DNA from: Promethearchaeota archaeon
GTDB lineage: Archaea > Asgardarchaeota > Lokiarchaeia > Sigyniarchaeales > SOKP01
Direction: 5' to 3'
NCBI GenBank assembly: GCA_004524725.1
Contig: SDNW01000001.1
Location: 2,213-66,212, forward strand
Length of the DNA stretch: 64,000 nucleotides
Part shown: piece after piece, positions 3,924-64,000 of the stretch
Layout: every line of letters begins with the position of its first letter
How positions within the stretch are numbered: position 1 is the first letter of the stretch
Translations under genes and position numbers: made by a program
Notes under the pieces: generated by a model
Database searches by the model: none
Told to the model about the DNA's origin: nothing
Seen by the model: the letters and a program-made list of their open reading frames with translations, nothing else

Positions 3924-4034
3924 TAATTTTTTTTATATTTTATTTTCAATTTATTATCGTTACTATTCTAACTTTTATAGGTGGTTTAAATAAAGCAGCG
4001 AATAGAAGGAAGAAAAAACTATCCTACAGATGAA

Positions 4035-21143: not shown

Positions 21144-21509
21144 ATGACTTTCCCATATTATGATCCATTTGGAGCATTTGGTGCAATCTTCGGGATAATG
21201 ATTATCGTTATTATTGCTTCATGCGTAATACAAATTGCTATTGCTGTATGGGTCTATAATGATGCAAAAAAGAGAAATATGGAACCTGCAATGTGGCTAG
21301 CAATAACTTTATTGGCGGGATGTATAGGTTGTATTATTTATTTAGTAGTAAGGGATCCTATTCCTACTGATACAATACCTATCGGTAATGAAGCTTATGA
21401 TACTCAAGATGTTAGGCCAAAATTAGAAAACGGTACTTTTTGTAGTAATTGTGGCAGTGAAATACCAGCTGGAGCTAAATTTTGTCCTTCATGCGGTAAT
21501 CCACGATAA
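21144..21509 (+). CDS. small membrane protein (PLDc_N-like two-TM module) with C-terminal zinc ribbon
   Basis: WVYNDAKKRNMEPAMWLAITLLAGCIGCIIYLVVR is followed by CSNCGSEIPAGAKFCPSCGNP. GGAGTGA lies 6 nt before the ATG. Confidence 0.6.
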   Translation: MTFPYYDPFGAFGAIFGIMIIVIIASCVIQIAIAVWVYNDAKKRNMEPAMWLAITLLAGCIGCIIYLVVRDPIPTDTIPIGNEAYDTQDVRPKLENGTFCSNCGSEIPAGAKFCPSCGNPR

Positions 21510-32997: not shown

Positions 32998-33804
32998 ATG
33001 AAAAATGATGAAATCGCAAATGACCCAATTAGAGAAGCGATAAAACAAAAAATCAAAGCGAAAATCAAAAATGAATTACTTAAAGAAATATATTCAGAAT
33101 TACAATTAGAAGAAGAAATAACGGACGAGATAGCAAGTGAAATAATAAATGAACCTATCTTAGAGCATACAGAGTTTAATAAAGCTAATCTGGAGCCGAT
33201 TCCCTCGGAGATCATTAAAACCTCTTCGGGAAATGGTAAAAGTAAATCACCTATTATCATAAATGTAAAATCTTTTCTTAAGATTGCTAGTCATGCGTTA
33301 AAATATGCGCATTCAAAAATTCCGAGAGAAAGTTGGGTAGAAGTCATAGGGCTACTCGCTGGAAAAATTGATAAAGTTCATGATATTTTACTTGTTGAAG
33401 ACGTTTATCCAATGGGTCATGGAAATGCCGTATATGCTGAAATTAAAGACTATAAAAATTATGTAAGAGCATTTAAAGATATTAAAAAAAGTAGTTTGTT
33501 TATTTGTGGATGGTATCACTCTCATCCATCTTATGGATGTTTTATGTCTAAGGAGGATTTAGGTACCCAATCTAGATATCAGGCGTTATGGGACAAAGCA
33601 ATAGCACTTGTGATTGATCCTTATCAGATAAATGGAAAATCTATGGGTTTTGAAATTTATCGTGCGAACATTAAAAAAAGACAATGGTTTTCTGTACCCT
33701 TCGAGATTAAGGGAAATATAGATGTGCGAATGTTACCTGAAATTTTGGAGTTCATGAACCCCATTATTGAGGGGAAGGCTGCTTATTTAGAATATGATGA
33801 ATAA
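32998..33804 (+). CDS. JAB1/MPN/Mov34 (JAMM) metalloprotease, Rpn11-like deubiquitinase/UBL-processing enzyme
   Basis: The upstream Glu is in ESWVEVIGLLAG, and the JAMM motif is GWYHSHPSYGCFMSKED (HxH-x7-S-x2-D). GGTGA overlaps the E2 stop, 6 nt before the ATG. Confidence 0.85.
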   Translation: MKNDEIANDPIREAIKQKIKAKIKNELLKEIYSELQLEEEITDEIASEIINEPILEHTEFNKANLEPIPSEIIKTSSGNGKSKSPIIINVKSFLKIASHALKYAHSKIPRESWVEVIGLLAGKIDKVHDILLVEDVYPMGHGNAVYAEIKDYKNYVRAFKDIKKSSLFICGWYHSHPSYGCFMSKEDLGTQSRYQALWDKAIALVIDPYQINGKSMGFEIYRANIKKRQWFSVPFEIKGNIDVRMLPEILEFMNPIIEGKAAYLEYDE

Positions 33805-34979: not shown

Positions 34980-35939
34980 CTATCTACTTTTTCCAATAAT
35001 TCTTCTTAATTCTCCGATAGTTGTTTTTAATTCTGAATATACATTATGGGGGTGAATGGATTCATAGCTTTCAATCGAAAATTTAATTTTACAATGATCC
35101 TCCAAATTTGGAAAATCGCTTAAGATAAAATTCTTTGCCATTTGCCTAACGACATCTTCAGAAAAGAGTGGATTTAGATGAGCAGTTCGCACGAGCTTTG
35201 CCTCTTCTGGTCTTTTTAAAACAGATTGCATTTTACCAGACATCGAGCCCTCAATTATATCAATTATATCTAAAACATCAATTTTATGATTGTTTAAATC
35301 TTTAATTTGAACAATGATAGTTCCTTTTGATCGTTGATTGTGAGAGCTAAAAGGTAAGATATTTAAAAGTTTCTTAATATCTTCTTCTCGCAAATTGATA
35401 TCCCTTCTATTTTTAATTATTTCTTCGGCATATTCTTGACTCATTTCTTTTGCGCAAGGACATACAGTCATACCTACAGCACTGGCACCGATATAATAAT
35501 TAAAATCAATTTCTCCAGATACGTTTTTAAAAGCTTTTACAAATGAACTGATCTTATATGACTTTTGGATATTTCTTTGTTGTTCATCTTTAGTTTGGAC
35601 CACTATTTTTCCTTCAAGTTTTACATGGACTTTTTTTGTATAGGGATGTTTTTTAAGAAGTTCTCGTGCTATTCTATCTCCTACAACTTCTACGGAGGGT
35701 GTTGGCTTGAAAATAACCTCATTTATAATTTCTTCAATTGTTTCAGAGGTGCGAGACATATGTATCCCTCGTTGTTTGGCAGGCAGAGAGATCAGAGCAG
35801 AGATCTTAGGATAAAAGGAATAGCGTTTATTTTCTTGAATGATATCGACTTTTTTTTCGACCCCTACGATTCCAACTTTATCAATCGGAATGTCGACTTT
35901 TGAGCCAGAATTCTGTAAATCTTTTTTAAAATGGCTAAT
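34980..35939 (-). CDS. mptA: GTP cyclohydrolase IV (MptA/FolE2 family)
   Basis: GMTVCPCAKEMS is present. Family-conserved N-terminal sequence (DIPIDKVGIVGVEK...LPAKQRGIHMSR) continues in frame upstream of the track's ATG at 35759 up to a TGA at 35948..35946. The only plausible initiator there is ATT 35939..35937 (see findings). Confidence 0.7.
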   Translation of the reverse strand: MSHFKKDLQNSGSKVDIPIDKVGIVGVEKKVDIIQENKRYSFYPKISALISLPAKQRGIHMSRTSETIEEIINEVIFKPTPSVEVVGDRIARELLKKHPYTKKVHVKLEGKIVVQTKDEQQRNIQKSYKISSFVKAFKNVSGEIDFNYYIGASAVGMTVCPCAKEMSQEYAEEIIKNRRDINLREEDIKKLLNILPFSSHNQRSKGTIIVQIKDLNNHKIDVLDIIDIIEGSMSGKMQSVLKRPEEAKLVRTAHLNPLFSEDVVRQMAKNFILSDFPNLEDHCKIKFSIESYESIHPHNVYSELKTTIGELRRIIGKSR

Positions 35940-36077
35940 TAAGTATCACGAACTTATATTAATTTTCCTATTTAATAAAAGTAGATATCTAATATAAAAA
36001 ATATTAATGACTAAGTTTGTTCTATTAAAGTTTAGAATTTAATTTATAAAACTATCATGCTTGTCTGATTTAGAAAA

Positions 36078-37247
36078 ATGGCGCAAAAGCATCTTTATTG
36101 TCGATTTGGGTTAATTGGAGAGAATTTAGAATTAAAACAAAATGTGAATCTATATTTCGACGAGGAAGGAATAATTACTGATTTTAAATTTGAAGAGATT
36201 GACACAGATATTACTCTTGATAGAATGCAAGAAAACTATCTTGTAATTCCTGGATTAATTAATTCTCATACTCATATAGGAGATAGTTTTGCTAAAGAAA
36301 AAGGTCACAATAAAGAATTAATTGAAGTGGTAAGTCCTCCTAATGGTATTAAACATCAACTATTACGTGAAACTGCTGAATCCGAAAAAATCAAGGGAAT
36401 AAAGTCCGCTATCCAGGAAATGATTTCGAATGGAATTACATATTTTATGGATTTCAGAGAAAATGGTGTCAAGGGGATTGAATCATTACAAAAAGCATTG
36501 AGAAATGAAAGCATTAGATGTTTAATCTTCGGACGATTTAATCAATTAGATGAAGTAAAAAAAGTTTTTAATAAATCAGATGGGATTGGACTATCTAGTT
36601 ATCATCAGCTTTCTGAAGAGTTAAAGACTGAACTTAGAACTATGAAATCATTTTCAAGTAAAAAATTAGCTTGTCATGTTGCTGAACTTAATCATGAGGA
36701 TTTTCTTTTTAAACAGATAATGGATGATGCTTTAGTAGATATAATGATCCATGGAACTCAATTAGAATCTAACGAGTTACGAAAAATTAAACAAAACAAT
36801 ATTAAACTAGTATTATGTCCGAGGAGTAATGGATATTTTGGACTTGGATATCCTCCTGTAAAAGACTTATTGGAACTAAGCATTCCCATTTCGCTAGGGA
36901 CTGATAATGTTATGGTTAATAATTTAAATTTATTTGAAGAAATGCGATATTTATATTATATTGCGAAAAACCAAATTAGAGATGATAAATCAATCAAAAT
37001 AATTGCTAAAAATATTTTTAAAATGGTAACTATTAACGCTGCAAAAAATTTTTATATTGAATCAAAGGTAGGCTCAATATCTTTGGGTAAGCTGGCTGAT
37101 TTAGTTATTATTAATTTAAATGATCCAAATTATTATTTTAATAATTTAGATAGAGATGGGTTTTTTTCATTACTTCTTCATAGGACTAATGGAAGGAATA
37201 TCAAAAGAGTATATATTGGAGGAAAATGTATATATGAAGGTAAATGA
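36078..37247 (+). CDS. metal-dependent amidohydrolase (chlorohydrolase/deaminase-like, TIM-barrel)
   Basis: It has PGLINSHTHIGDS (HxH metal site), an internal H (ACHVAE) and the late motif GTDN. The substrate is unknown. Confidence 0.7.
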   Translation: MAQKHLYCRFGLIGENLELKQNVNLYFDEEGIITDFKFEEIDTDITLDRMQENYLVIPGLINSHTHIGDSFAKEKGHNKELIEVVSPPNGIKHQLLRETAESEKIKGIKSAIQEMISNGITYFMDFRENGVKGIESLQKALRNESIRCLIFGRFNQLDEVKKVFNKSDGIGLSSYHQLSEELKTELRTMKSFSSKKLACHVAELNHEDFLFKQIMDDALVDIMIHGTQLESNELRKIKQNNIKLVLCPRSNGYFGLGYPPVKDLLELSIPISLGTDNVMVNNLNLFEEMRYLYYIAKNQIRDDKSIKIIAKNIFKMVTINAAKNFYIESKVGSISLGKLADLVIINLNDPNYYFNNLDRDGFFSLLLHRTNGRNIKRVYIGGKCIYEGK

Positions 37248-37902
37248 TAAGCCTTATATTATTTTAAGTGCCGCTATGACCATAGATGGAAAAATCGCCT
37301 CTAAACAAGGCGATACAGAGATATCTGATGATGAAGATTGGAAAGAAGTACATAAACTCAGAACCAAAGTTGATGCAATAATGGTTGGGAAAAATACCAT
37401 ATTAATCGATAATCCAAAACTTCATATCAAATTTTATTCGCATTCTGGTTATTATCGCATTATTGTAGATAGTAATTTAACGATACCAATAAACTCAAAT
37501 GTCATTACATATCAACCTGAAATATATCCAACAATCATTTGTACTACTGAGAAAGTTCCTATTGACAAAATAAATGAATATAAATCAAAAAATGTTAATG
37601 TTATTACTTCTGGCGATACTAAGCGTGTAAATATTAATTTTTTATTACCCAAGTTATATCAAATGGGTATTAGGTCAATCCTGTTAGAAGGGGGAGGAAA
37701 TCTAAATTGGAGTTTTATAAAAGAGAATTTAGTAGATGAAATAAGACTGACAATTGCTCCTTGGATTATTGGAGGAGAAGATGCGATTACCTTGGTTGAA
37801 GGAGAGGGTTTCTTACGCATGAAGGATGCACCCGGGTATCATTTATCTAAAGTTAAAACAAGAAAGAATTATCTTAAATTAAAATATTTAAAAGTAAAAT
37901 GA
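37234..37902 (+). CDS. 2,5-diamino-6-ribosylamino-4(3H)-pyrimidinone 5'-phosphate reductase (RibD C-terminal-domain family)
   Basis: YIILSAAMTIDGKIAS, VDAIMVGKNT and ILLEGGGNLNWSF are present. ATG 37234 is preferred to the track's 37156, because the 26 extra residues overlap the previous gene. Confidence 0.75.
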   Translation: MKVNDKPYIILSAAMTIDGKIASKQGDTEISDDEDWKEVHKLRTKVDAIMVGKNTILIDNPKLHIKFYSHSGYYRIIVDSNLTIPINSNVITYQPEIYPTIICTTEKVPIDKINEYKSKNVNVITSGDTKRVNINFLLPKLYQMGIRSILLEGGGNLNWSFIKENLVDEIRLTIAPWIIGGEDAITLVEGEGFLRMKDAPGYHLSKVKTRKNYLKLKYLKVK

Positions 37903-38987
37903 AAAAATCTTCCCAGAGCTTAGAAAAACTTAAATCTTTATCCTTACGTAAAATACGTCAAGAAGTAAATAATATAAATAAGGACAATAAAACTATAACT
38001 TATTCGAAGAATTTTACGATTTCACTTTCTAATTACTGTAGAAACAACTGTGGCTATTGTTTTTATAACCACCGAGTTCCAAAAGACAATGATAATGGCA
38101 TCATTGTATTAATTTCTAATTCGGATTTGGATTCATTAATTATAAAAGCAAAAAATTCCGACTGTAAAGAGGCATTACTTATGTCGGGGGAAAAACCCGA
38201 TAGTTTTGAAATTGTGAGAAATGAATTAAAAAAACGAGGTTTTAATTCATATATTGAGTTCTTGATCGAAATAAGTAACAATCTCTTAGATAATAGATTA
38301 TTACCACATACGAATATTGGTTTAATAGATTTCAAGGATCTAAAAGAGTTGAAAACTGTGAATGCCTCTATGGGATTGATGTTAGAAAGTACTTGTGAGA
38401 AATTATCAATGCAAGGAGGTGTTCATGAATTTTCTCCTGGAAAATTACCTAAAAAACGAATTCAATTTATTCAAAATGCAGGAAAACTTAAAATTCCCTT
38501 TACTACTGGTCTTTTATTAGGGATTGGCGAGGACGAAACCGATCGCATTAATGATTTATTATTAATATACAAAATCCATAAACAATATGGTCATATACAA
38601 GAAATTATATTACAAAATTATACAGAAAAACAAAATATAAAATATCACCCCATTAATCCTTTATCCATAGATGATATACTCAAAACAATCGGGATTGCTA
38701 AATTAATTATGGGAAATGAAATTGCAATACAAGTCCCTCCAAATTTATTAAAAGGCTATGAAAAAGAAGCAATATCAATGGGAATTAGCGATTTTGGAGG
38801 TATTTCTCCAGTTACAATCGATTATATCAATCCCCATCATCCATGGCCACAAGTCGAGTATTTAACAAAAATTTGTAAAAAAGAAGGATATGAATTAAAA
38901 GAACGACTACCAATATATGAGAAATTTATCAAAAAAGATGGGTTTTGCTCAGAAAAAATAAGATCTATAATTAAAAAGATAATATAG
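37899..38987 (+). CDS. cofG: FO synthase subunit 1 (radical SAM, CofG)
   Basis: ITYSKNFTISLSNYCRNNCGYCFY matches the CofG N-terminal radical-SAM motif. The ATGA start/stop overlaps the previous gene. It is adjacent to the CofH-like partner. Confidence 0.75.
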   Translation: MKKSSQSLEKLKSLSLRKIRQEVNNINKDNKTITYSKNFTISLSNYCRNNCGYCFYNHRVPKDNDNGIIVLISNSDLDSLIIKAKNSDCKEALLMSGEKPDSFEIVRNELKKRGFNSYIEFLIEISNNLLDNRLLPHTNIGLIDFKDLKELKTVNASMGLMLESTCEKLSMQGGVHEFSPGKLPKKRIQFIQNAGKLKIPFTTGLLLGIGEDETDRINDLLLIYKIHKQYGHIQEIILQNYTEKQNIKYHPINPLSIDDILKTIGIAKLIMGNEIAIQVPPNLLKGYEKEAISMGISDFGGISPVTIDYINPHHPWPQVEYLTKICKKEGYELKERLPIYEKFIKKDGFCSEKIRSIIKKII

Positions 38988-38993
38988 AGAAAA

Positions 38994-40118
38994 ATGATTT
39001 CTGAATACAAGCATATTGATCCAAAAGTTAAAGAAGTTCTCAAAAAGGCAGAGAACTCTGAGGAAATAACTAAAGAGGAGGCTTTAAAATTATTAAAAGT
39101 AACTGGTAAGGAATTTTTTGCACTCCAAAATTCTGCAAATAATCTCTGTCTTCAGAAGAAGAATGATGTTGTGACCTTTATAGTAAATCGTAACATTAAT
39201 TTTACAAATATCTGTTATCAAGGTTGTCGTTTTTGTTCTTTTAGTGTTACAAGTAAAGATGAGGATGCTTTTCTATTAAATCTTGAAGCAATCCGTGAAA
39301 AAACCCTCAAGGCCTATGAAGCTGGATGTACTGAATTATGTATTCAAGGGGGTATAAATCCAGAATTAAATTTTGAATATTACTTAAATATCTTAAAAAT
39401 CGTTAAAGAAGTGAGTAGCAATCTTCATGTTCATGCATTCTCGCCCCAAGAGATTTTCTATATGTCGAAATTACATGGAAATGATATTGAAGAAACCTTA
39501 AAGGAACTAAAGAAAGCGGGTTTAGATTCAATTCCAGGAACAGCAGCAGAAATTCTTGTTGATAAAGTACGAAAAATTATTTGCCCAAGGAAAATAAACA
39601 CATCACAATGGATTAATATTATAAAAATTGCCCATAATTTGAAAATCCCTACCACCTCAACGATGATGTATGGTCATATTGAGGACCTTACAGATCGTAT
39701 AGAACATTTAGATATTTTAAGGAACATTCAAAAGCAAACTGGGGGTTTTACTGAATTTGTCCCCCTACCTTTTGTAAACGAAAATCCCATTCTCTCAAGG
39801 TTACCAGACATCCCATTGAAGCCGCATTATGGTATGGGAGATCTTAAATTATTTTGTGTAGCACGTTTGTTTTTTAATAACTATATCGATAATATTCAAT
39901 GCTCTTGGGTAAAGCTGGGTCCGAAAATGGCTCAGATTTCATTGAATTATGGAGTAAATGATTTTTCAGGGACATTAATGGAAGAAAATATATCAAAATC
40001 AGCGGGAGCAGAATATGGAGAATATTTATCTCCACAAGAAATAATATCCATAATAAAAACTGCAGGAAAAAAACCTGCTCAAAGAGATACTGTATATAAA
40101 ATTTTAAAATACTATTAA
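38994..40118 (+). CDS. cofH: FO synthase subunit 2 (radical SAM, CofH)
   Basis: NINFTNICYQGCRFCSF is a CxxxCxxC motif. The length and collinearity fit the CofH/MqnC/MqnE clade, and the pairing with CofG supports CofH. Confidence 0.7.
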   Translation: MISEYKHIDPKVKEVLKKAENSEEITKEEALKLLKVTGKEFFALQNSANNLCLQKKNDVVTFIVNRNINFTNICYQGCRFCSFSVTSKDEDAFLLNLEAIREKTLKAYEAGCTELCIQGGINPELNFEYYLNILKIVKEVSSNLHVHAFSPQEIFYMSKLHGNDIEETLKELKKAGLDSIPGTAAEILVDKVRKIICPRKINTSQWINIIKIAHNLKIPTTSTMMYGHIEDLTDRIEHLDILRNIQKQTGGFTEFVPLPFVNENPILSRLPDIPLKPHYGMGDLKLFCVARLFFNNYIDNIQCSWVKLGPKMAQISLNYGVNDFSGTLMEENISKSAGAEYGEYLSPQEIISIIKTAGKKPAQRDTVYKILKYY

Positions 40119-40132
40119 TTATAAAATTCTAA

Positions 40133-42007
40133 TCATTTCCTTGCTTGTTCTTGAAGTAGATTAAGAATGAAATGTTGAGTGATAATATCGGAACTGATTT
40201 TACCAAGAACAATTCCCTCTTTTACTACCGGCATTGCAGAAATTTTGTATTGCTCAAGTTCTCTTACTATTTCTAACAAACTCAAATCAGGAGATGCTGT
40301 AATTACGTCCCTTGTCATAATATTTTCAAGGTTAGAAGCACTTATTCCCTCAGCAGTAGCTTTTGTTATATCCCAATCAGTTAATACCCCAATCAGTTTC
40401 TCGTTTGAAAGAACAGCAACGATTCCACTATTCTCTTTTATCATTAATTCAGCAGCTTGTTGCATATTATTTTGAACATCAATAACCGGAATAGAAACCA
40501 TGATATCTTTTGCGGTTCTTAAACTTTCCTTTCGAGAGAGGCGTTGGAGGCTTATTTGCTCAGCTGCTGCAGAAGGCAATATATCTTGATTAGCCGTCAG
40601 AATTTCAACTAATTCATTCATGTTATTCTGGATTACATTTTCTCTATATTCTCTTCCAGCTATTAATCGTTCCTTTGATAGTTTAGCAAATTGCTCGGCG
40701 TGATCCTTTAACCATTTCTCAACTTTGTCTGATTGTCCTAATATCTTTTTTGGTATTTGAAGATCATTTGGTGTTTTTATTATATGTTCTTGAGCTGCAA
40801 AAATTACACCTCCAGAATTAACTAGATAATCATTCGCAATCATTATCCCCTTTTCTCTATATACTACTTGTTCCATTACCGTTCTTGCTGCTTTCCTATT
40901 GGGATCAGGAGAATAGGTGTTTGCTCCTTCTACTATTAATGACCAATTACCTATGCGATTAACCGTCATTGAGGGGTTATCGATTTCACTTACTCCTAAA
41001 TAATTAAATATTGGTGCTGCTGGAACCATACAAAAAGCATTTTCAACAAGAAGATTATTAGGATTACTCGAATATTTAATAGGATGTTTATGACCTATTG
41101 GCATAATTTTGTTCTTAAAGTAATTAAGTGATACTATTTTTTCTTCCAACCATATATTAAATAGCTCTGCGATTGGTAAACCGCGTTTATCATAAAGATA
41201 GCCATCAATATCACTTATTCCAATAACTTTTGCTTTAGGAAGACGTTCTGTAAGTATTCTTGCAGCATGAGCCCCCACTGCCCCAAATCCTTGAATAATT
41301 AAACTAACTTCTTCTGGTTCTGGATTTTCCAATGTAGAAAATTGGGGTAGAATAGTTAGACGTGGCATTATTTTTAATAAAGTTTGTAAAGCGATCACGA
41401 CCCCTCCGGCTGCGGCACCAAGCTCATCAATCCTATTTCCTCCCATATCTGCAGTTTTAGATACTGCGCTATCAATTCCGTTTTCGATAGCAATGGTCTT
41501 CATATCCGCGTCGTTAGTTCCGACATCCGGACCAGGTACATATAGATTTTTATATCGATTGATTAATCGTGCAAAATGACGCACAATATCTGTATGTTGA
41601 TCTGAAGGAATATCTCGTTCTGCTATAATTCCAGATTTACCCCCTCCATAGGGAAGATTTGCTGCTGCATTTTTCAAAGTCATACCTCTTGCTAGGTTAT
41701 ATATATCTGAAGGTAATAAATCTGGAAGCATTCTAATTCCTCCCATACTTGGTTTACCCATCGATAAATTATCAACGACTAAATATCCACCTACTTCTAA
41801 TTTGGAGTTTTTATCCCATATACACGCTACGAGTTGGGGTCCTAATTTATCGCTTATAATCCCAATGCTGGAAAGTAGGTTTTCATCAGCCTTTGTGAAT
41901 TCTAAATAACATAAACCATTTTCTTCGAGAAGCCGGTTTTTAAGGATATTTTTAGGGAGATGTTCTTTCAGAAAGCGTTCCATATTTTTAGGAATCATTT
42001 TTACCAT
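40133..42007 (-). CDS. Glu/Leu/Phe/Val-family amino-acid dehydrogenase fused to a C-terminal CBS-domain pair
   Basis: It has the substrate domain MGGIRMLP...LARGMTLKNAAANLPYGGGKSGI and the Rossmann motif IQGFGAVGAHAA. The last ~125 aa carry two CBS repeats (VSIPVIDVQNN...GVLTDWDI and MTRDVITASPD...GKISSDII). Confidence 0.75.
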   Translation of the reverse strand: MVKMIPKNMERFLKEHLPKNILKNRLLEENGLCYLEFTKADENLLSSIGIISDKLGPQLVACIWDKNSKLEVGGYLVVDNLSMGKPSMGGIRMLPDLLPSDIYNLARGMTLKNAAANLPYGGGKSGIIAERDIPSDQHTDIVRHFARLINRYKNLYVPGPDVGTNDADMKTIAIENGIDSAVSKTADMGGNRIDELGAAAGGVVIALQTLLKIMPRLTILPQFSTLENPEPEEVSLIIQGFGAVGAHAARILTERLPKAKVIGISDIDGYLYDKRGLPIAELFNIWLEEKIVSLNYFKNKIMPIGHKHPIKYSSNPNNLLVENAFCMVPAAPIFNYLGVSEIDNPSMTVNRIGNWSLIVEGANTYSPDPNRKAARTVMEQVVYREKGIMIANDYLVNSGGVIFAAQEHIIKTPNDLQIPKKILGQSDKVEKWLKDHAEQFAKLSKERLIAGREYRENVIQNNMNELVEILTANQDILPSAAAEQISLQRLSRKESLRTAKDIMVSIPVIDVQNNMQQAAELMIKENSGIVAVLSNEKLIGVLTDWDITKATAEGISASNLENIMTRDVITASPDLSLLEIVRELEQYKISAMPVVKEGIVLGKISSDIITQHFILNLLQEQARK

Positions 42008-42125
42008 CCAAAAGCATTACTTAATTTAAAATATCTATTAACTATTATGAGTAGCTTGAATATAAAATTGATTAGTAACTATATAAGAAATCTATTAAAA
42101 ATTAAATTGATTTGAATAATTAATT

Positions 42126-44030
42126 ATGGGGAAAAATGAAAAAAAACTTCTTGTAATTGGTATCGATCAAGCCATTCCATATCTACTTCAGAAATTTTTG
42201 AAAGAAGGGAGGCTTCCCAATATTCAAAATTTAGTCGATAATGGGGTTATTGGGGAAGGATATTCTTGTCCTCCATGTGATACACCTACTAATTGGACAA
42301 CAATCGCGACTGGAGCTACAACAGCAATTCACGGAGTAACCAGCTTTTATATGCATATTCCTGGAGAACCTCTCGATTTAGGAATGAAGTATAGATCGAG
42401 AACCCAACTCTATAATAGTTGTAAAGCACAATATCTTTGGGATATTGCTGATAGAAATGGATATAAACCGTTTGTAATTAATTATCCTTCGGGTTGGCCA
42501 AGTGAATTTAAGAATGGTGTGATGAGTTTATTTACTTGGAATATCCCTAACTCCCTACCTAAAATGCTAATTTCTTCTGAAATTATTACCATCAATTCTA
42601 ATTCAGATATTCCACTGAATAACGAAGCGATAAAGAAAGCAATTAGTAATAATATTGAGAGGTTGACTCAAAATTTAGGCATGTCAATTGAAAATACAAA
42701 TCATCTTAATCAACAAATTGTTAATTTTAATTTGAATATTAGCAATTCAAATAAGCAAATCTATGATTCATTGCAAATCAGTGTTAATAATTCTAAGAAA
42801 ATAAAAACTGTAAAAGAAAGTGAATGGAGTCAATGGATATCCGTTCAGATAGCCTCAGAACAAGGTATTCTCCCATCTCTCTTCAGAATAAAACCATTAC
42901 AAATTGAATCAAACGGAAGATCTATAAAATTAGAACGTTCTGGAGTTTATAATACAAAAGGATGGTCGGTTCCCGATTCATTTGGGGAAAAACTCGTGAA
43001 AAATGTGTTTGAATACGATCTGCCTAAAAAAAGAGAAGTAGAATTTATGATATATGGAAAGATGAAAAACTATCTGAAATCAGCTAGAAGAGAGAGTTTT
43101 ACCTTGGTTCAAGCACTTCATTTTGGTAAAAGGGATTTTAATTGGGATTTTTGCTTCTTTCACTATCATCCTTTAGATACTATCAACCACGACCTTTTAG
43201 CCTATTTACATAAAGATTCACCAGTTTATACCGAAAAGAAAGCAGAAAAAGCATTGCAGAATGTTGAAACCGCCTATCGCATCGTCGATGAAATGGTAGG
43301 AGAATTAATGAAAAGGTGTATCGATAAACATACAATTACTTTATTCATATCCGATCATGGTGCGATACCTATATGGAAAGTAGCTAATATAACTAGAATT
43401 CTAGTTGAAGCAGGATTAGTAACTTATAAGTATAATCAGGCTCAAAAGAAAAAAATTATCGATTGGAAGAAAACATTGGCATTCCCTTATATGGAACCCC
43501 CTTTTGTCTGGGTTAACCTAAAGGGAAGAGATCCCCAAGGGATAGTGGGACGAAAAGAATACGAAATAGTGAGGGAGCGGATAATTGAAGCCCTTTCTGA
43601 GGCAAAAGAGCCAGAAACAAATGAAAAAGTAATAGATATGGCGTTAAGAAGGGAGGATGCAAAAGATATGGGATTAAACGGAGATAGAATAGGAGATGTA
43701 GTGTATTTCTTAAAACCACCTTATGGAGTATTTGATGGGGATTTAGATGCTTTAGACGCGTCAAGCTTATTATTAAATGCATATAATAAACCTTTGACTT
43801 ATAATACAAAAAGATTTTTTGGAGCACACGCATATTATACACCAGATACTGTTTTTGGAGACTTTTCAGTAAGTGTGCCTGTAATAATAAATGGTAGAGG
43901 TATAAAGAAAGGAGATACCTTGAACCAAGTCATCAATTTAACTGATATTGTTCCCACCTTATCACATTTACTTAGTATTCCTAAGCCCACACACGCACAA
44001 GGAAATATCGTATACGATTTTTTAGAATGA
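42126..44030 (+). CDS. alkaline-phosphatase-superfamily protein (type I phosphodiesterase/nucleotide pyrophosphatase-like)
   Basis: It has LVIGIDQA (metal Asp), PPCDTPTNWTTIATGATTAIHG (nucleophile Thr/TG...HG) and FISDHGA (DHG). Confidence 0.65.
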   Translation: MGKNEKKLLVIGIDQAIPYLLQKFLKEGRLPNIQNLVDNGVIGEGYSCPPCDTPTNWTTIATGATTAIHGVTSFYMHIPGEPLDLGMKYRSRTQLYNSCKAQYLWDIADRNGYKPFVINYPSGWPSEFKNGVMSLFTWNIPNSLPKMLISSEIITINSNSDIPLNNEAIKKAISNNIERLTQNLGMSIENTNHLNQQIVNFNLNISNSNKQIYDSLQISVNNSKKIKTVKESEWSQWISVQIASEQGILPSLFRIKPLQIESNGRSIKLERSGVYNTKGWSVPDSFGEKLVKNVFEYDLPKKREVEFMIYGKMKNYLKSARRESFTLVQALHFGKRDFNWDFCFFHYHPLDTINHDLLAYLHKDSPVYTEKKAEKALQNVETAYRIVDEMVGELMKRCIDKHTITLFISDHGAIPIWKVANITRILVEAGLVTYKYNQAQKKKIIDWKKTLAFPYMEPPFVWVNLKGRDPQGIVGRKEYEIVRERIIEALSEAKEPETNEKVIDMALRREDAKDMGLNGDRIGDVVYFLKPPYGVFDGDLDALDASSLLLNAYNKPLTYNTKRFFGAHAYYTPDTVFGDFSVSVPVIINGRGIKKGDTLNQVINLTDIVPTLSHLLSIPKPTHAQGNIVYDFLE

Positions 44031-44032
44031 GA

Positions 44033-45616
44033 TTATTCATCTTGGATGTAAGGTTTATTCAACTCTAAGCAAATCTGAGCTCTTTCGAGTTCTCTTCCTA
44101 AATAATTAAGATGTTCATTATTTTTCGTAAGTCCTAACTGGATAAACTTTTTGCATAACGCTTCAGCATTGGTACCAATAAGGGTTTTCAAAAGCACATT
44201 TTCGTTCGAATAAAATAGTAAATAGATTTTTTTAGCATATGGTTCAACATAGATTCGAAAATAGCCATTTACATCTGGATTGTAATTTGTATTTTTCGAT
44301 TTCACGTTTAAAGCATTTGTTAGATCGATTTTTGGTATCTTTTGGCGAGTCTTTCCTTTTGATTTAAAAATAGTAATACCTTGATTGATAGGAGGAGATT
44401 TTCGATAATGTGCTAAATAATTCAATTTTACACTTTCTTTTAATTCTGAGATCCCTCCCATTAATTTTACACTGTGTTCGACTGTAAAAAGTACACCAAT
44501 ACCTAATTCAATCGCGAAACTTGCTAAAAGACCATTTATTCCTACTGAATCGATGTCCATCAGTTCAACCACATTTGAAATTCCAAAGAATAATGGCAGT
44601 TTTAATGACTTATTGCTCTTTTCACCAACCATTTTATTATATAACATATAAGAATCTAAGGAATTGCAGATCCCTGGAGAGATTGGGGTCTCTAATAATG
44701 GATCCGCGATCAACTTTTGAAACCCATTATCTTGTAAAATTTGAGTTAATTTGAATAAATTTTCGACTCGTTCCTTAGGATTTTTAGGGAAATATGCTTT
44801 TTTCATGTCAGTTGGTAAAATAACTATTGGAATTGTTTTTGGAATGTCTAAAAAGTCTTTATAGTTGCCTAAATCAAAACTAAGAATCATATCAATATCA
44901 GCATTAATTGCAGCCATAATTTCCGATTTATCCATGGAATCAATACTTAATAATACATCAAAATTACGGCGAATAGTCTTAATAATAGTAGGGATTCTTT
45001 CAGGATAAGCATTATTTGAAACACATCCAATATCAATAATATCCGCACCAGATTCAACATAATGTTTTACCTTCTTGAGAATTTTATTCTCTGATCTTTC
45101 AGTACAATTAACTATTTCTGCAATAATAGGAGGAGGGAGGTAAGGAGAAATCATAACGTTTGTTTTCCTTTTATTTATATAAAAAGAATTGCTACTGATT
45201 TCTCGTTGTGCAAGTCTCTTTTGCTCTTCTAAAATATTAGTATATTCTTTTTCTCCTGAAATTTCAATCAATTTATTTGCAGGTAATTTCCCAGAAAGCG
45301 TTATATTTTCGAGATTTTTGAGAACAAAGGGCAAATCTGAGGCAAATTCTGGTCCCTTTTTTATCTCAACCTTAAATTTTTCTTCTATTTTATTTGTATC
45401 CCATTGTACAAATCCAGGTAATAATATTAAATCATAATTAGAAACAGAAATTTTCTTTAAGATATCAATCACAATATCTTTTGTTAGGAAAGCTGAAATT
45501 GTTATTGGCGCCTTAAATACATCGATCTTATAATTTTTAATTGGTTTAATTATTTTTGAAATAATAGAAAAACTACTTGTACCGGTAATAATTAAAATAT
45601 TCTTATCCAAAATCAC
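44033..45616 (-). CDS. dihydropteroate-synthase-like pterin-binding protein (long archaeal form)
   Basis: The central TIM-barrel signature is YVESGADIIDIGCVS. The ~150-aa N-terminal and C-terminal extra domains are unassigned. Confidence 0.6.
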   Translation of the reverse strand: MILDKNILIITGTSSFSIISKIIKPIKNYKIDVFKAPITISAFLTKDIVIDILKKISVSNYDLILLPGFVQWDTNKIEEKFKVEIKKGPEFASDLPFVLKNLENITLSGKLPANKLIEISGEKEYTNILEEQKRLAQREISSNSFYINKRKTNVMISPYLPPPIIAEIVNCTERSENKILKKVKHYVESGADIIDIGCVSNNAYPERIPTIIKTIRRNFDVLLSIDSMDKSEIMAAINADIDMILSFDLGNYKDFLDIPKTIPIVILPTDMKKAYFPKNPKERVENLFKLTQILQDNGFQKLIADPLLETPISPGICNSLDSYMLYNKMVGEKSNKSLKLPLFFGISNVVELMDIDSVGINGLLASFAIELGIGVLFTVEHSVKLMGGISELKESVKLNYLAHYRKSPPINQGITIFKSKGKTRQKIPKIDLTNALNVKSKNTNYNPDVNGYFRIYVEPYAKKIYLLFYSNENVLLKTLIGTNAEALCKKFIQLGLTKNNEHLNYLGRELERAQICLELNKPYIQDE

Positions 45617-46703
45617 TCATCTGTGTTTTATCAAACGGGATGTATATATCATCTAATATCGACCCTGCTGCTTCCTTTAATCTTAGATTATCAATAATAG
45701 GCTTAAATTCTCCATCTAGTAGACCATTCGCTATAAAAGCTGCTCCTTGCGCGGCCCGTTTTGATAATTGACTATAGGTTTTCATAACACGTACGGGAGC
45801 GATATCTTTTAAATTTGAGATAATTTTTTCCCTAAGGAAGGTCAAGTTTGCCCCTCTTCCAGCTAATAAAATTTCACGTATATTGGTTCTATTACTAAAT
45901 GAAGAGGAGATAGCATAAACCGCTTTCTTTACACTTGATATATAGGCATCAAGAGCAACCTTAGTTTGTTCATCCCTCTCAGCCAAAAGCATAATTTCAT
46001 GTAAACTCAGATCTTCGTATCCTGCAATATAGGAGACTCCTCCCTTGTAGATATTCTTCTTTTTAATAGTTTTGATAAGGTATGCCAATTCTCCATCTAA
46101 ACTTCCACAAGCTTTAAATCCCATTATATTAGAACCTCCTATTCCATCAATTATTTGTCCATCTTCAATAGCTAATACTGCAGTGAATCCATAACCTATC
46201 TCTACCATGATGAAATTAGTATTTTGGGGTAATATTTGAAAAGTTTCCATTTGATCTCGAATACCTGTGACAGCAGTACAGAGTTTATCCGCTGTTCCCA
46301 TATCAATTTTATTAATTTTCCTATACCGGGGTATGGTTGGTAAATGTTTTACACCAGGAACAATTATTCCTGGAATTTTTTCTGCCTTAATTAGGCGTAA
46401 TACCTCTCCTAAGCCTATCAATTTTTCCTTCTCTTCTTTTTTAAACTTTAAAAGAGTATAATGAATATCTTTTTCAGTTAAATCATCAACATATTTTAAC
46501 GGAAGGCCAAAACCACTTGGTGCAACCATTAAATCTATATTTTTCACAGAATTTATTATGGTAATTGCTTTTTGAGGTTCTTTAATTAACTCTTGGGAGG
46601 GTATAGACGTATCAAGAATAATTTTATCATTATGTAATCCAAAAAAATCCCAGCTTAATGATCCCGGATCAATTCCAATAACGCGAAACATATGAATGTA
46701 CAA
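45603..46703 (-). CDS. ASKHA-fold (acetate/sugar kinase-Hsp70-actin superfamily) protein, DUF1464-like
   Basis: The phosphate-1 motif is VIGIDPGSLSWDF. Later Gly-rich segments are VEIGYGFTAV and ILLAGRGA. Its stop overlaps the downstream DHPS-like gene by 14 nt. Confidence 0.5.
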   Translation of the reverse strand: MYIHMFRVIGIDPGSLSWDFFGLHNDKIILDTSIPSQELIKEPQKAITIINSVKNIDLMVAPSGFGLPLKYVDDLTEKDIHYTLLKFKKEEKEKLIGLGEVLRLIKAEKIPGIIVPGVKHLPTIPRYRKINKIDMGTADKLCTAVTGIRDQMETFQILPQNTNFIMVEIGYGFTAVLAIEDGQIIDGIGGSNIMGFKACGSLDGELAYLIKTIKKKNIYKGGVSYIAGYEDLSLHEIMLLAERDEQTKVALDAYISSVKKAVYAISSSFSNRTNIREILLAGRGANLTFLREKIISNLKDIAPVRVMKTYSQLSKRAAQGAAFIANGLLDGEFKPIIDNLRLKEAAGSILDDIYIPFDKTQMSDFG

Positions 46704-46861
46704 TATTTCTTCTATACTTATTAGTTTATAATTATTGCTAAAGAAATTTAATCGACTTTTAGTTCATAGTGATTAAATATTAATAATCTAAAAAACTCCT
46801 TTCCAAAAATTCTAAAATTGAAATAAATTAAGCTATAATTAAACAAAGAAAGGTGTAAAAA

Positions 46862-47392
46862 ATTACTGTTGTAGATGTTTTTGTATGTAAAATTTGTGGA
46901 GAGGCATATATTGGAGAAAAAATCCCAACTCATTGTCCCTTTTGCGGAGCTCATAAAAAATATTTAGTAAAAGCTCGAGATTATGATGATACAGGAGCTT
47001 GGGAAGTAGATCTAAATGAAAAGGATAGAAAAAACGCAGAGAAAGCGTTAGAGGTTGAAATTTCTAATACTATATTCTACAAATGCGCAAGCAAAAAAAC
47101 CCCAAGTTTAGAAGGGCAGAAATTATTTAAAATATTGTCTAAAGTAGAAAATGAACATGCTTCGGTTTGGAAAAAAATTTTAAAATTAGATAAAATTGAG
47201 CTTCCAAAATATGATGCGTGTGCTTCTGAATACGTCCCGAATCTGGAAGAATCTCATTCTCGAGAAGAAAGAGCTATTAATTTCTACAAGCAAGCAGCAT
47301 CAGAATCTGCAAATCCTCGAGTACGAGAAATTTTTCAAGCTTTTGTAGAGGTAGAAACCGATCATCTCAAATTATCTGAAAAAAGACTTTAG
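46862..47392 (+). CDS. rubrerythrin-family diiron protein with N-terminal rubredoxin-like Cys4 finger
   Basis: The frame is open from 46859. VCKICGEAYIGEKIPTHCPFCGA is followed by ferritin-like ExxH motifs (ENEH, ETDH). The track reports only the C-terminal 85 aa from TTG 47135. ATT 46862 lies 6 nt after AGGTG. Confidence 0.65.
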   Translation: MTVVDVFVCKICGEAYIGEKIPTHCPFCGAHKKYLVKARDYDDTGAWEVDLNEKDRKNAEKALEVEISNTIFYKCASKKTPSLEGQKLFKILSKVENEHASVWKKILKLDKIELPKYDACASEYVPNLEESHSREERAINFYKQAASESANPRVREIFQAFVEVETDHLKLSEKRL

Positions 47393-47487
47393 AAAATCCA
47401 ACTATTTTTTTTATTTATTTTTACAATATTTTTAATTAACTAAGAAGAATATATTTAATTAATTCATTTTTTAAGCTGCAATTATCA

Positions 47488-48210
47488 ATGGAAGTACAAT
47501 ATCAAGATCTTGGGATTAAAGATGGTTATTTGTATGAAATAATAGCAACAACTATTTCTTTCAAGAATGATAAAAAAATCCCAAATGCTTCATGTATGGG
47601 AATAAGAATAACTAATAATAAGGTAATCATCAAACCCTATCATAATACTCAAACATATAAAAATTTAAAAGACAATTCTTTAATTTGTATCAATTTTGTG
47701 AAAGAAATTAGTTTATACACTTTAGCAGCTTTAAAGGGACCGTATCTTTCAAAGAAATACGAAAGATTCCCTCAGAAATATTATGAATATTATCACATAA
47801 AAAATAACAATAATAGCCTGAAAACTCTAAAAATAAATCAAATCCCTTACCTTAGAGACGCATGGGCAATAATTATTTGTAGAACAAAAAAATCAATAAA
47901 AATTGATAAAGAGGACGTATTTGGGCCTGTCAATCTCACTGAATTTGAATTAGAAATGCTTTCTATAGTAAAGTTAAAAGATTCATTCAAACTTTTTAAT
48001 AGAGCCGAGAATTTAACATTAGAAACACTAATTTTAACGACTAGGCTTAAAATAGCCTTTGAAAAAAATGACTATGATCTAGTGAAGGATTATCAAAGTA
48101 AAATTGATAACGGTATTAAAGAAATTATCCACTTCAATAATAATTTAGAAGTATCTAAATCAATAAATCTTATTCAAGAGTATATTAGAAATTTAAAATT
48201 GGAATTTTAA
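47488..48210 (+). CDS. hypothetical protein, possibly DUF447-like (flavin-reductase-like fold seen in methanopterin gene clusters)
   Basis: The N-terminus GYLYEIIATTISFKN...PNASCMGIRI resembles DUF447. The context lies next to mptD and the RFAP synthase gene. The assignment is weak. Confidence 0.4.
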   Translation: MEVQYQDLGIKDGYLYEIIATTISFKNDKKIPNASCMGIRITNNKVIIKPYHNTQTYKNLKDNSLICINFVKEISLYTLAALKGPYLSKKYERFPQKYYEYYHIKNNNNSLKTLKINQIPYLRDAWAIIICRTKKSIKIDKEDVFGPVNLTEFELEMLSIVKLKDSFKLFNRAENLTLETLILTTRLKIAFEKNDYDLVKDYQSKIDNGIKEIIHFNNNLEVSKSINLIQEYIRNLKLEF

Positions 48211-48584
48211 GATATTTGTTCGATATACATAAGTGGATAATTTATATCTTCAATCCATTTTATCTTAGCTTTAACTTTTACTGATTCATATTCTAAATCA
48301 ATTTCTGCGTTAATAATTTCCCCCGATATATCATCGTAGGCAAATTCAGTTTTTTTATCTCCAATAATCTTGGCTTTATTAAGAAAAATTCTTACATTTT
48401 TTACATATGGTTGGCAAGAAATAGAAGCTTGAATCCCTTTCTCAATAGATTTTATGATATCATCATTTGAAGAGATCGGAATACCGCATAAAATATGATA
48501 AAGCGCTCCCAGCTTGATTCCCACTTCAAAGCAAGCTCTTTCTCTTTTAGAAAGATTTGCAGGAAAAAAGTTGTCTATTGACAT
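48207..48584 (-). CDS. mptD: archaeal-type 7,8-dihydroneopterin aldolase (MptD family), tentative
   Basis: The 125-aa protein has RERACFEVGIKLGALYHILCGIP, which resembles the conserved core of the archaeal DHNA family. It shows TAATG coupling with the upstream RFAP synthase gene. Confidence 0.55.
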   Translation of the reverse strand: MSIDNFFPANLSKRERACFEVGIKLGALYHILCGIPISSNDDIIKSIEKGIQASISCQPYVKNVRIFLNKAKIIGDKKTEFAYDDISGEIINAEIDLEYESVKVKAKIKWIEDINYPLMYIEQIS

Positions 48585-49645
48585 TAATCATCATCCAAAT
48601 ATTCGATTTTAGCCCCAAAATTGTTTGGCTTACAAATATATATGTGCCCTCCAGAACCACTTATCAGTTTTTGAACTTCTTTTAGTAATGCATTAGCCTC
48701 TTCATCTGATTCTGTTATTGCAACAACACTGGGTCCAAATGAAGACATGCCATAGGCTTTAACGTCACAGTCCTCAAAGAAATTCAAAATTTCTTTGACT
48801 ATTTCGTGTTGAAGATCAATTTCAATTCTTTTAAATCCAATAGATTGAATTCTTTTTAATCCTTCTCCAAAACAAACAATATCATTTTTAAGAATTCCAG
48901 GTATAATTTTCATTAATATTTGATGAGAGACCTCGTTTACTTCATTTTTAGGAATTGGAGCATGACTTTGGAAGATACTTACCTCCTCATCCCCGTACGC
49001 TCCTTTTTCCACATTAGGAATTACTAACACAAAACGCCAATGTTCCGGAATTGGATAGCTAAATAAAGTAAGGGCAGGATCCGCAGATGTGGAAGCAGAG
49101 GATGGCAGAAAAGTTTCTTTTTCTTTTCCAATCCCAAATTCATGGCCTCCATCGACAATGAATCCCCCACTCTCAAATCCTCTCCAACCTATACCCGAAG
49201 TACCACCACGTTCCATAAGTTTTGTTAACTTTTTTATTGAAATGTCATCAATTTGCTTTAATTTCATAATTGCAGTAGCAATTGCAAGCGATAATTGAGT
49301 TTTAGAACCTAATCCTACATGGCTTGGATAGTATCGTTTTAAAGAAAAATGAAAGTTTTTATTACTAATGTTAAAGGTTTTAAACACTTTAGAAGCTTTT
49401 TCATTGATAACTTCTATCGATTCCTTATAATATTTATGAGCCTCAATTTTAAATTCCTCAGCGTGATTTGAGGCTTCGAATACAACATTAGGGCGGTCTA
49501 ACATTAACCCAATGCCCCCATCGATTCTATTTGTGTAGCCATTCTCATCTATTAAGGATAGATGTATCCGACAGGGCGTTGTTATCCTTATTTTCATACT
49601 TATTATATAAGATAATTTTAAAGCTAAGATTATGAATTCTTTCAA
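48584..49645 (-). CDS. mptG: beta-ribofuranosylaminobenzene 5'-phosphate (beta-RFAP) synthase, GHMP-kinase fold
   Basis: RITTPCRIHLSLIDENGYTNRIDGGIGLMLDRP and GLGSKTQLSLA match my recollection of the beta-RFAP synthase family, which catalyses the first committed step of methanopterin biosynthesis. Confidence 0.7.
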   Translation of the reverse strand: MKEFIILALKLSYIISMKIRITTPCRIHLSLIDENGYTNRIDGGIGLMLDRPNVVFEASNHAEEFKIEAHKYYKESIEVINEKASKVFKTFNISNKNFHFSLKRYYPSHVGLGSKTQLSLAIATAIMKLKQIDDISIKKLTKLMERGGTSGIGWRGFESGGFIVDGGHEFGIGKEKETFLPSSASTSADPALTLFSYPIPEHWRFVLVIPNVEKGAYGDEEVSIFQSHAPIPKNEVNEVSHQILMKIIPGILKNDIVCFGEGLKRIQSIGFKRIEIDLQHEIVKEILNFFEDCDVKAYGMSSFGPSVVAITESDEEANALLKEVQKLISGSGGHIYICKPNNFGAKIEYLDDD

Positions 49646-49719
49646 TAATATAAACTTAATATATCAATATTTCTCAAAATATTGAGCGTTCTAAAAAAAT
49701 AGAAAAAAAAATAACAAAA

Positions 49720-63592: not shown

Positions 63593-63687
63593 ACTTGAAT
63601 TATTGGACAAGTTGCAGTTTTCACCAAACTTTTATAATTTTGATACGATTTAGATAATTATCCTTAGATTTAGGCTGGTGAATTAGG

Positions 63688-64000
63688 ATTTTAAGGGTAG
63701 GATTGATAGGCTGTGGAGATATAGCTAATTTAAATGTATTAGGATATTTATGCTCAAAAGATACAGAATTAGTTGCTGTTTGTGATACAGACATGGCAAG
63801 AATTGGAAAGAAATTGGAGAGATGGGGCTTACGTACTACAAACGTTTATACTGATTTTAAATTGATGATAGATCGTGAAGAACTTGACATTGTAGAGATA
63901 CTCACACCTCATCATCTACATTATCCAATGACTGAATACTGTGCTAGTGCGGGAGTACCAGGAATCTCGGTTCAAAAACCATTAGCTCACACTATTACGG
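63688..64000 (+). CDS. Gfo/Idh/MocA-family NAD(P)-dependent oxidoreductase, N-terminal part (runs off window end)
   Basis: It has (I)LRVGLIGCGDIANLNVLGYL, the Rossmann beta1-GxGxxG motif, and later EILTPHHLHYPM. The frame opens after TGA 63679..63681. The only canonical start (TTG 63703) would delete beta1. ATT 63688 lies 6 nt after GGTGA. Confidence 0.65.
   Translation, partial: MLRVGLIGCGDIANLNVLGYLCSKDTELVAVCDTDMARIGKKLERWGLRTTNVYTDFKLMIDREELDIVEILTPHHLHYPMTEYCASAGVPGISVQKPLAHTIT

Follow-up and report, generated by a model that had tools for sequence, protein, structure and literature searches.

Probable translation of a Lokiarchaeia-type rubrerythrin-family gene from an AUU codon behind a Shine-Dalgarno motif, and candidate starts of the same kind in other genes

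A gene for a rubrerythrin-family ferritin-like protein in the window (the whole 64,000-nucleotide stretch of Promethearchaeota archaeon DNA analysed here) appears to be intact and to be translated from an AUU codon at positions 46862-46864. Judging from sequence comparison, we put the probability of this reading at roughly 85%. The original prediction had proposed initiation at this ATT directed by a Shine-Dalgarno (SD) motif, and the proposal is supported by the alignment of the ATT with the ATG of orthologues, by the lack of alternative starts, by purifying selection and by independent assemblies. The positions that had been given for the AGGTG motif, the TAA, the ATT, the first Cys codon and the downstream TTG all match the sequence to the base. 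The features of the locus are as follows.

46851..46855, plus strand: Shine-Dalgarno motif AGGTG, read in the sequence
46856..46861, plus strand: 6-nt spacer TAAAAA, whose in-frame TAA (46856-46858) shuts the frame off from the upstream sequence
46862..46864, plus strand: ATT, putative initiation codon (AUU, initiator Met-tRNA), aligned with ATG, ATT, ATA or ATC of the orthologues
46862..47392, plus strand: CDS of the rubrerythrin-family ferritin-like protein, 176 codons and TAG (47390-47392)
46880..46963, plus strand: rubredoxin-like Cys4 domain, CxxC...CxxC (Pfam PF21349), with Cys codons at 46886, 46895, 46934 and 46943
47039..47371, plus strand: ferritin-like four-helix-bundle (rubrerythrin) domain (Pfam PF02915) with two E...ExxH diiron motifs
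47135..47137, plus strand: TTG, the first in-frame ATG/GTG/TTG, an internal Leu codon (Leu93) in helix 2

From the TAA to the first Cys, the codons are AAA ATT ACT GTT GTA GAT GTT TTT GTA, and the ATT at 46862 is the only codon of the open stretch that differs from ATG by a single base. Its distance of 6 nt from AGGTG lies within the spacing of about 5-8 nt that was taken as functional for an SD motif. The same geometry is found at ATG-started genes of the window: the GGTGA-6 nt-ATG at 32998 and at 9523 (minus strand) and the GGAGTGA-6 nt-ATG at 21144 are present as the original prediction had quoted them. The GTG contained in AGGTG is part of the SD motif rather than the start codon, as the TAA directly after it shows. 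This TAA is not reassigned, because TAA is the most frequent stop codon of the window, terminating 30 of 54 open reading frames (ORFs) of at least 150 codons. The first canonical codon, TTG 47135, lies 91 codons past the ATT and within helix 2 of the ferritin-like domain; initiation there would lose the Cys4 domain, helix 1 with its ligand E67, and part of helix 2. The G+C content of the window is approximately 30%.

The encoded protein is a rubrerythrin-family, predicted diiron ferritin-like protein of 'reverse' order, that is, with an N-terminal Cys4 domain. The Pfam profile Rubrerythrin (PF02915) matched residues 61-171 with 37.3 bits (cutoff 22.8), and RUBY_RBDX (PF21349) matched residues 8-35 with 30.2 bits (cutoff 26.5). 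The earlier identification as rubrerythrin therefore holds for the family, as both Pfam cutoffs were passed, but the protein falls outside the equivalog group of classical rubrerythrin: the NCBIfam model NF045767 scored 23.9 bits (cutoff 200), with the Cys4 part only. In an alignment of 37 homologues, all four Cys residues were nearly invariant, and E67, E97xxH100, E136 and E166xxH169, the predicted diiron ligands, were invariant. An AlphaFold model with a pLDDT of 95.7 placed a three-stranded Cys4 ribbon at the N-terminus, followed by a bundle of four long helices. The nearest solved structures in a fold search were ferritins and a mini-bacterioferritin with TM scores of 0.54-0.62, generic ferritin-like matches only, and a PDB sequence search with the protein gave no match at E <= 1e-3. 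Among 1138 database homologues, the best named ones belong to Promethearchaeota/Lokiarchaeota metagenome-assembled genomes (MAGs). Both classical and reverse rubrerythrin likewise combine a diiron four-helix bundle with a Cys4 rubredoxin-like domain. In classical rubrerythrin, however, the rubredoxin domain is C-terminal, while the window protein has the reversed order that we presume it to share with reverse rubrerythrin (revRbr) of Clostridium acetobutylicum. It further differs from these proteins in the unreached equivalog score for classical rubrerythrin, in having no PDB sequence match, and in the position of its gene, which sits within a conserved pterin-biosynthesis cluster.

The start region was compared between orthologous loci, using one genome per species and the best 80 of 129 loci, each anchored on the first Cys codon. 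Nearly all of these genomes are labelled as Promethearchaeota or other Asgard archaea (MAG taxon labels are those given by the submitters); MK-D1 and L. ossiferum are absent from the best 80 of the 129. In 30 of these 80 species, no in-frame ATG, GTG or TTG occurs between the upstream stop and the first Cys codon, and four species of the set (L033, L049, L061 and L063) have no canonical start in the whole 176-codon ORF. In some relatives, an in-frame GTG, located either just 5' of the first Cys codon or within the SD motif, is a possible alternative start. Comparing the starts of orthologous rubrerythrins, as had been suggested, showed that the ATT occupies the position at which other orthologues carry ATG, at an equal distance from GGTG(A). 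Among the 78 scorable orthologues of the best 80, the aligned start codon is ATT in 49, ATG in 20, ATA in 7, ATC in 1 and TTG in 1, counts that overstate the number of independent events as the species are related, and it is always located 5-7 nt past (G)GTG(A). A choice of start codon from the SD motif alone in 79 loci of the best 80 gave a similar picture (ATT 50, ATG 13, ATA 7, ATC 2). A rough neighbour-joining tree of the 78 orthologues with a scorable start implies at least ten switches of this codon between ATG and ATT, ATA or ATC (ATH). ATT accounts for 49 of the 57 Ile codons at the start position compared to 44% internally (binomial 8e-11); we did not rely on this bias as start evidence, as an internal Ile column shows the same degree of bias (46 of 57).

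This alignment also bears on the choice of the ATT among the codons of the open stretch. The stretch holds eight more sense codons, and initiation might occur at another non-canonical codon (GTT, GTA or ACT; 46865-46885), which we regard as quite unlikely. Each of those codons is two positions off ATG and lies outside the 5-7 nt distance from the SD motif. Moreover, they vary between species as ordinary sense codons do, whereas the ATT column alternates with ATG, ATA and ATC, and in two further genes described below, those for MptA and the pterin-binding protein, the ATT is often the first codon past a stop.

In 70 aligned start regions, GGTGA at -11 to -7 is the only conserved block near the start, with the G at -10 present in 90%. 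The commonest arrangement reads (T)GG TGA AAA AAG ATT TTT GTT AAA GTA TTT GTA TGT, and in many species the GGTGA thus ends in an in-frame TGA stop, two codons 5' of the ATT. At the position of the window's TAA, relatives in its clade have TAA, CAA, GAA, TTC, AAA or AGA. This triplet varies freely and therefore resembles an untranslated spacer. A TATA-like string, ctataatt, lies approximately 25 nt 5' of the ATT and would be compatible with leaderless initiation. However, TATA-like strings 5' of the SD motif are not conserved and were set aside as a candidate leaderless promoter, while the GGTGA is conserved at -11 to -7, which fits an SD motif and not a promoter spacer, and its fixed distance argues for a leader. 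Recoding could in principle also yield the protein, either by readthrough of the TAA or TGA from a start further upstream or by a programmed frameshift that begins at an ATG in another frame, for instance the one at 46875 adjoining a T5 run. The frameshift was ruled out, as neither the ATG nor the T5 run is conserved. As to readthrough, the in-frame upstream sequence has more stops and no conserved ORF, and the TAA that would have to be read through is the main stop codon. Taken together, recoding and leaderless initiation are highly improbable compared with SD-directed initiation at the ATT.

The N-terminal region upstream of the canonical codons is under purifying selection. For the 32 codons spanning the Cys4 domain, we obtained a pS of 0.59 and a pN of 0.063 (pN/pS 0.11) in the 30 species without a canonical start; synonymous sites are thus near saturation and the protein has hardly changed. 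A pN/pS of this size upstream of the canonical starts excludes both a pseudogene and a product made from an internal codon only. That such an internal codon (TTG 47135 in the window, ATG or GTG elsewhere) gives rise to a truncated product without the Cys4 domain would be in line with the 143-aa forms annotated at NCBI (P0077 and P0085), which lack this domain. Nevertheless, this explanation is very hard to sustain. Helix 1 with an invariant Glu ligand would be missing from the product, the Cys4 domain is under purifying selection, and the distance from the first Cys codon to the first internal canonical codon varies between 26 and 155 codons among species, with no such codon at all in four species of the best 80 of 129 loci.

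Close relatives were examined with regard to the possibility that the gene is broken in the window, either by a sequencing error or as a pseudogene in which the second codon behind a GTG start has mutated to a stop. The homologue P0001, which is 98% identical, has GGTG CAA AAA ATT, and its gene caller began at that GTG. GTG CAA in this homologue and GTG TAA in the window differ by a single C/T exchange, which would fit a broken gene. In contrast, a relative that is about 85% identical in protein again has GGTG TAA AAA ATT ACT in three separate NCBI assemblies, and its NCBI annotation covers no more than a 143-aa fragment without the Cys4 domain. As the same GGTG-TAA-AAA-ATT is present in both lineages, a sequencing error in the window can be ruled out. 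Both a read error, for which the original prediction had proposed a check, and a pseudogene are contradicted by the independent assemblies and by the pN/pS value. A pseudogene is further opposed by the 30 of 80 species that have no canonical start at all, by purifying selection across the region that would be untranslated, and by the hypervariable, spacer-like triplet past the GTG. A broken gene is about as improbable as the truncated product.

The in-frame GTG-TAA of the window, which also occurs in L004-6, L008, L009 and L023, allows a further explanation in which ribosomes initiate at GTG 46853-55, terminate at once on the TAA and then start anew three bases further on, at the ATT or close to it. 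A context of the coupling type exists in the pterin-binding gene of relatives, where the ATT overlaps the stop of the upstream gene (gATTAAa). However, the GTG itself is not preceded by an SD motif, and a large clade with GGTGA has its GTG out of frame with the TGA and still keeps the ATT start. This start-stop route would therefore be possible in one clade only, and even there the ATT would remain the start of the protein, with only the delivery of the ribosome differing. We judge it to be slightly less likely than a start at a neighbouring non-canonical codon and somewhat more likely than recoding, a broken gene or a truncated product.

Direct initiation at the ATT could proceed in the following way. 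The AGGTG six bases upstream would pair with the 3' end of the 16S rRNA and thereby set the AUU in the P site. The initiator Met-tRNA with its anticodon CAU would pair with the first two bases of AUU, and the mismatch at the third position would be tolerated, as in bacterial infC and pcnB. The N-terminus of the protein would then be Met-Thr-Val-Val-Asp... From the sequence context we infer the SD-16S pairing, Met as the first residue and a leader on the transcript; that Met-tRNAi decodes the AUU despite the mismatch at its third position is suggested by analogy. AGGTG is complementary to what we take to be the conserved 3' end of archaeal 16S rRNA (..GGAUCACCUCC). A search for the 16S 3' end (anti-SD) in the compared loci gave no match, and a tRNA scan of the window found no tRNAs.

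The rubrerythrin-family gene is not the only one in the window with an apparent start of this kind. Three further genes have an ATT or ATA behind an SD motif.

34980..35939, minus strand: MptA/FolE2, putative start ATT 35939-35937, located 5 nt past GTGAT
63688, at the window's end: Gfo/Idh/MocA oxidoreductase, putative start ATT in TGGTGA-ATTAGG-ATT, followed by LRVGLIGCG
3990: CCG-domain Fe-S protein, putative start ATA, with TAG GTG GTT TAA followed by ATA AAG

In MptA/FolE2, the Pfam domain begins at residue 6 counted from the ATT, and the first ATG, encoding the Met of the HMSR motif, is located at about residue 60. Among 39 species, the corresponding codon is ATT in 31, ATC in 5 and ATA in 1, six bases past GGTG(A); in 8 of the 39, a stop codon lies directly 5' of the ATT, and two orthologues start with ATG and have no SD motif. 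For the Gfo/Idh/MocA protein, position 1 of the Pfam profile falls on residue 2. Its 46 metagenome orthologues read ATG TTA AGA GTA GG. without an SD motif, while the three nearest relatives of the window and L101 have an ATT at or beside that position together with a strong SD motif and no canonical start. The association of ATT with the strong SD motif is significant (Fisher p = 4e-7) and represents at least two events, as L101 is independent. Where the CCG-domain protein has its ATA, most orthologues have an ATG in the alignment (MKERIKGRKN versus IKQRIEGRKN in the window), and the genes of the nearest relatives have been called from the same GTG embedded in the SD motif.

Two additional families display the arrangement in relatives. 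In the gene for a pterin-binding protein, TAA GTG ATT TAG is followed by ATT AAA ATT CTT ATA ATT ACT GGT. The ATT is the very first codon past the stop in 56 of 66 species, and the first canonical codon occurs 3-224 codons downstream. In the window's copy (44033..45616), TTG stands in place of the TAG and GAT in place of the ATT, which opens the frame to GTG/TTG. A response-regulator family in relatives has an SD-ATA start. Conserved families were screened for N-terminal extensions after removal of antisense 'shadow' ORFs. In this filtered syntenic set, the SD-ATH pattern occurred in 4 of 26 conserved families and never in the other 22. It is thus stably tied to particular genes and not noise.

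The frequency of the arrangement was also compared with chance. In the window, we counted codons at GGTG-N6/7 that head an ORF of at least 100 codons and have an in-frame stop at most 4 codons upstream. This applied to 2 of 12 ATT, 2 of 11 ATG, 1 of 16 ATA and 0 of 7 ATC codons, and to none of 66 composition-matched control codons (TTT, TTA, AAT, TAT and AAA). In 1.35 Mb of related DNA, ATT located 6 nt after GGTGA opens an ORF of at least 100 codons in 45 of 72 cases, a number dominated by two gene families, and none of more than 50 other codons at this distance does so. The SD-ATT arrangement thus exceeds chance both in the window and in the related DNA.

Based on these results, we lean towards the view that, in Asgard archaea of the Lokiarchaeia type, AUU (and also AUA and AUC) behind a strong GGTGA-type SD motif forms a regular, gene-specific and deeply conserved class of starts that would comprise roughly 5% of genes. 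This estimate is based on 4 of about 62 window genes and, for the syntenic set, on 4 of 26 families. The co-occurrence of a weak start codon with a strong SD motif suggests, speculatively, that the pair sets a particular, probably low, level of translation. Such starts may keep certain pathways expressed at a fixed level, which in this case would be the pterin cofactor cluster. One may also speculate that the weak codon makes these genes sensitive to the activity of aIF1.

If the class is real, gene catalogues of Asgard archaea would systematically truncate or omit such genes. Gene callers take only ATG, GTG and TTG, so that the present protein is, in public data, cut to 143 aa, begun at the GTG of the SD motif or, where its ORF lacks any canonical start, uncallable. 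A systematic class of N-terminal errors matters because Asgard proteomes are intensively mined for eukaryote-like proteins; the study of the tubulin AtubA had already met an N-terminal annotation problem. A class combining a weak codon with a strong SD motif would in addition offer a new handle on start-codon fidelity in the lineage closest to eukaryotes.

An AUU start as such is of a known kind. Bacterial infC (encoding IF3), E. coli pcnB and Enterococcus faecalis ebpA (PMC4447247) likewise have an AUU initiator behind an SD motif, and in infC the AUU is conserved among orthologues as it is at the window gene. In the bacterial genes, the weak codon serves to limit or tune expression; infC autoregulates through the discrimination of IF3 against AUU. 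In contrast, the machinery of the window lineage is archaeal (aIF1, aIF1A and aIF2), and its AUU genes are metabolic or redox genes without a link to initiation factors, so that nothing points to autoregulation of the infC type. A comparative study found 'few' AUU starts in prokaryotes and better-conserved SD motifs at weaker start codons (PMC5622118). The occurrence of ATT with a strong SD motif at positions where ATG orthologues have none agrees with the latter, whereas the window lineage has at least four to five AUU families compared to the 'few' of the survey.

In eukaryotes, near-cognate initiation occurs because Met-tRNAi accepts a single mismatch to AUG, and mitochondria use AUU and AUA starts, with higher usage in AT-rich genomes. 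Whereas these systems rely on scanning and context or on a modified tRNA, the start in the window is apparently fixed by its distance from the SD motif.

We know of no biochemical demonstration of AUU initiation in any archaeon. In reviews of initiation in archaea, AUG, GUG and UUG are the only start codons listed (PMC7531240), and a 2026 review describes SD sequences as rare in Lokiarchaea (PMC12993045). Within the literature that we covered, which is incomplete, no conserved multi-gene AUU initiation in archaea was found, and the only Asgard case was AtubA of the Kariarchaeaceae (Heimdallarchaeia), for which a 'rare ATT start codon' with a ribosome-binding site was inferred (Sci Adv 2026, PMC13394414). 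This case concerns a single gene in a single MAG and was deduced from the completeness of the fold (PMC13394414). In contrast, the ATT described here is conserved over dozens of species, alternates with ATG and occurs in several unrelated families of another Asgard class. What appears to be new, as far as sequences can tell, is thus a conserved and recurrent class of start sites in Asgard archaea.

Start regions relevant to initiation at codons other than ATG, GTG or TTG were compared among orthologues for the following genes of the window:

34980..35939, minus strand: MptA/FolE2-type GTP cyclohydrolase; ATT at 35939-35937, GTGAT at 35949-35945
44033..45616, minus strand: pterin-binding/DUF4346 gene; start region 45590-45630, compared with relatives L004-L086 (loci of related Asgard species)
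3979-3992: start region of a CCG-domain (HdrB/GlcF-like) Fe-S protein; AGGTG 3979-83, TAA 3987-89, ATA 3990-92; CDS to 4973
63677-63690: start of a Gfo/Idh/MocA oxidoreductase; GGTGA 63677-81, ATT 63688-90; 3' part beyond the window end

Judged by its sequence, the MptA/FolE2-type gene would begin at ATT, 5 nt past GTGAT. The first canonical start is the Met codon of the HMSR motif, some 60 residues into the Pfam domain. ATT (or ATC) together with GGTG(A) is kept in 36 of 39 species, often with a stop codon immediately 5' of the conserved ATT/ATC. The ATT start of the pterin-binding/DUF4346 protein is the first codon past TAG/TAA in 56/66 relatives, where it overlaps the stop codon of the upstream gene (gATTAAa). 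In the window and in the related locus L007, TTG replaces the stop codon and GAT replaces ATT, making GTG/TTG usable as a start; this looks like a compensatory change of start type.

In the CCG-domain protein, ATA appears to be the start codon. The window ATA matches the ATG of most orthologues (MKERIKGRKN...) in the alignment. Annotation of the nearest relatives begins at a GTG within the Shine-Dalgarno (SD) motif; in the window, a stop codon lies between this SD-embedded GTG and the ATA. For the Gfo/Idh/MocA oxidoreductase, the ATT positioned 6 nt 3' of GGTGA is the predicted start codon. In 46 metagenomic orthologues, ATG occurs in place of ATT and the SD motif is missing; versions with ATT have acquired a strong SD.

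Public annotations of the rubrerythrin-like family conflict (for example, the homologues P0001, P0023, P0077 and P0085). Annotated starts are located at the GTG inside the SD in some cases and at a GTG immediately ahead of the first Cys codon in others, and some proteins are annotated as 143-aa truncated versions. In four species (L033, L049, L061, L063), the open reading frame is entirely devoid of a canonical start codon, placing these genes beyond the reach of standard gene callers.

Upstream of the rubrerythrin-like gene, the divergent intergenic region of the window contains two AT-rich blocks:

46771-46795: AT-rich block (GATTAAATATTAATAATCTAAAAAA)
46718-46740: AT-rich block

These blocks are kept in many species (tttttaataatttaatcta... 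and ...cttatactaagttgtaag) and probably serve as promoter or operator for both the rubrerythrin-like gene and its divergent neighbour DUF1464, in which case the leader would be about 50 nt long. Locus L063 carries a tandem duplication spanning the entire start region (taataggaaaaaaattaattataaaagtagtgaaaaaaaATTtttgttaaa, two copies); it lies some 90 nt 5' of the rubrerythrin start. Among 70 orthologues, 90% of the rubrerythrin start regions have an A at -3 from the start codon, which is inconsistent among other ATT-start families and may be a mere effect of the A-rich spacer.

The rubrerythrin-like gene is located within a conserved pterin/methanopterin-type biosynthesis cluster (window about 34980-49663; also in the gene tables of L004-L006). 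The cluster comprises the pterin-binding protein, DUF1464, DUF447, DHNA/MptD and a GHMP-kinase-like protein, with MptA close by, and includes three ATT-start families. A single-domain response regulator adjoins the cluster (L004 5881, L013 13002, L021 12925, L032 11401); no canonical start precedes its conserved (I/V)xVLIVEDD N-terminus, and GGTGA-N6-ATA is present in some species. As pure speculation, the function of the diiron protein may lie in the pterin/methanopterin-type pathway rather than in peroxide removal.
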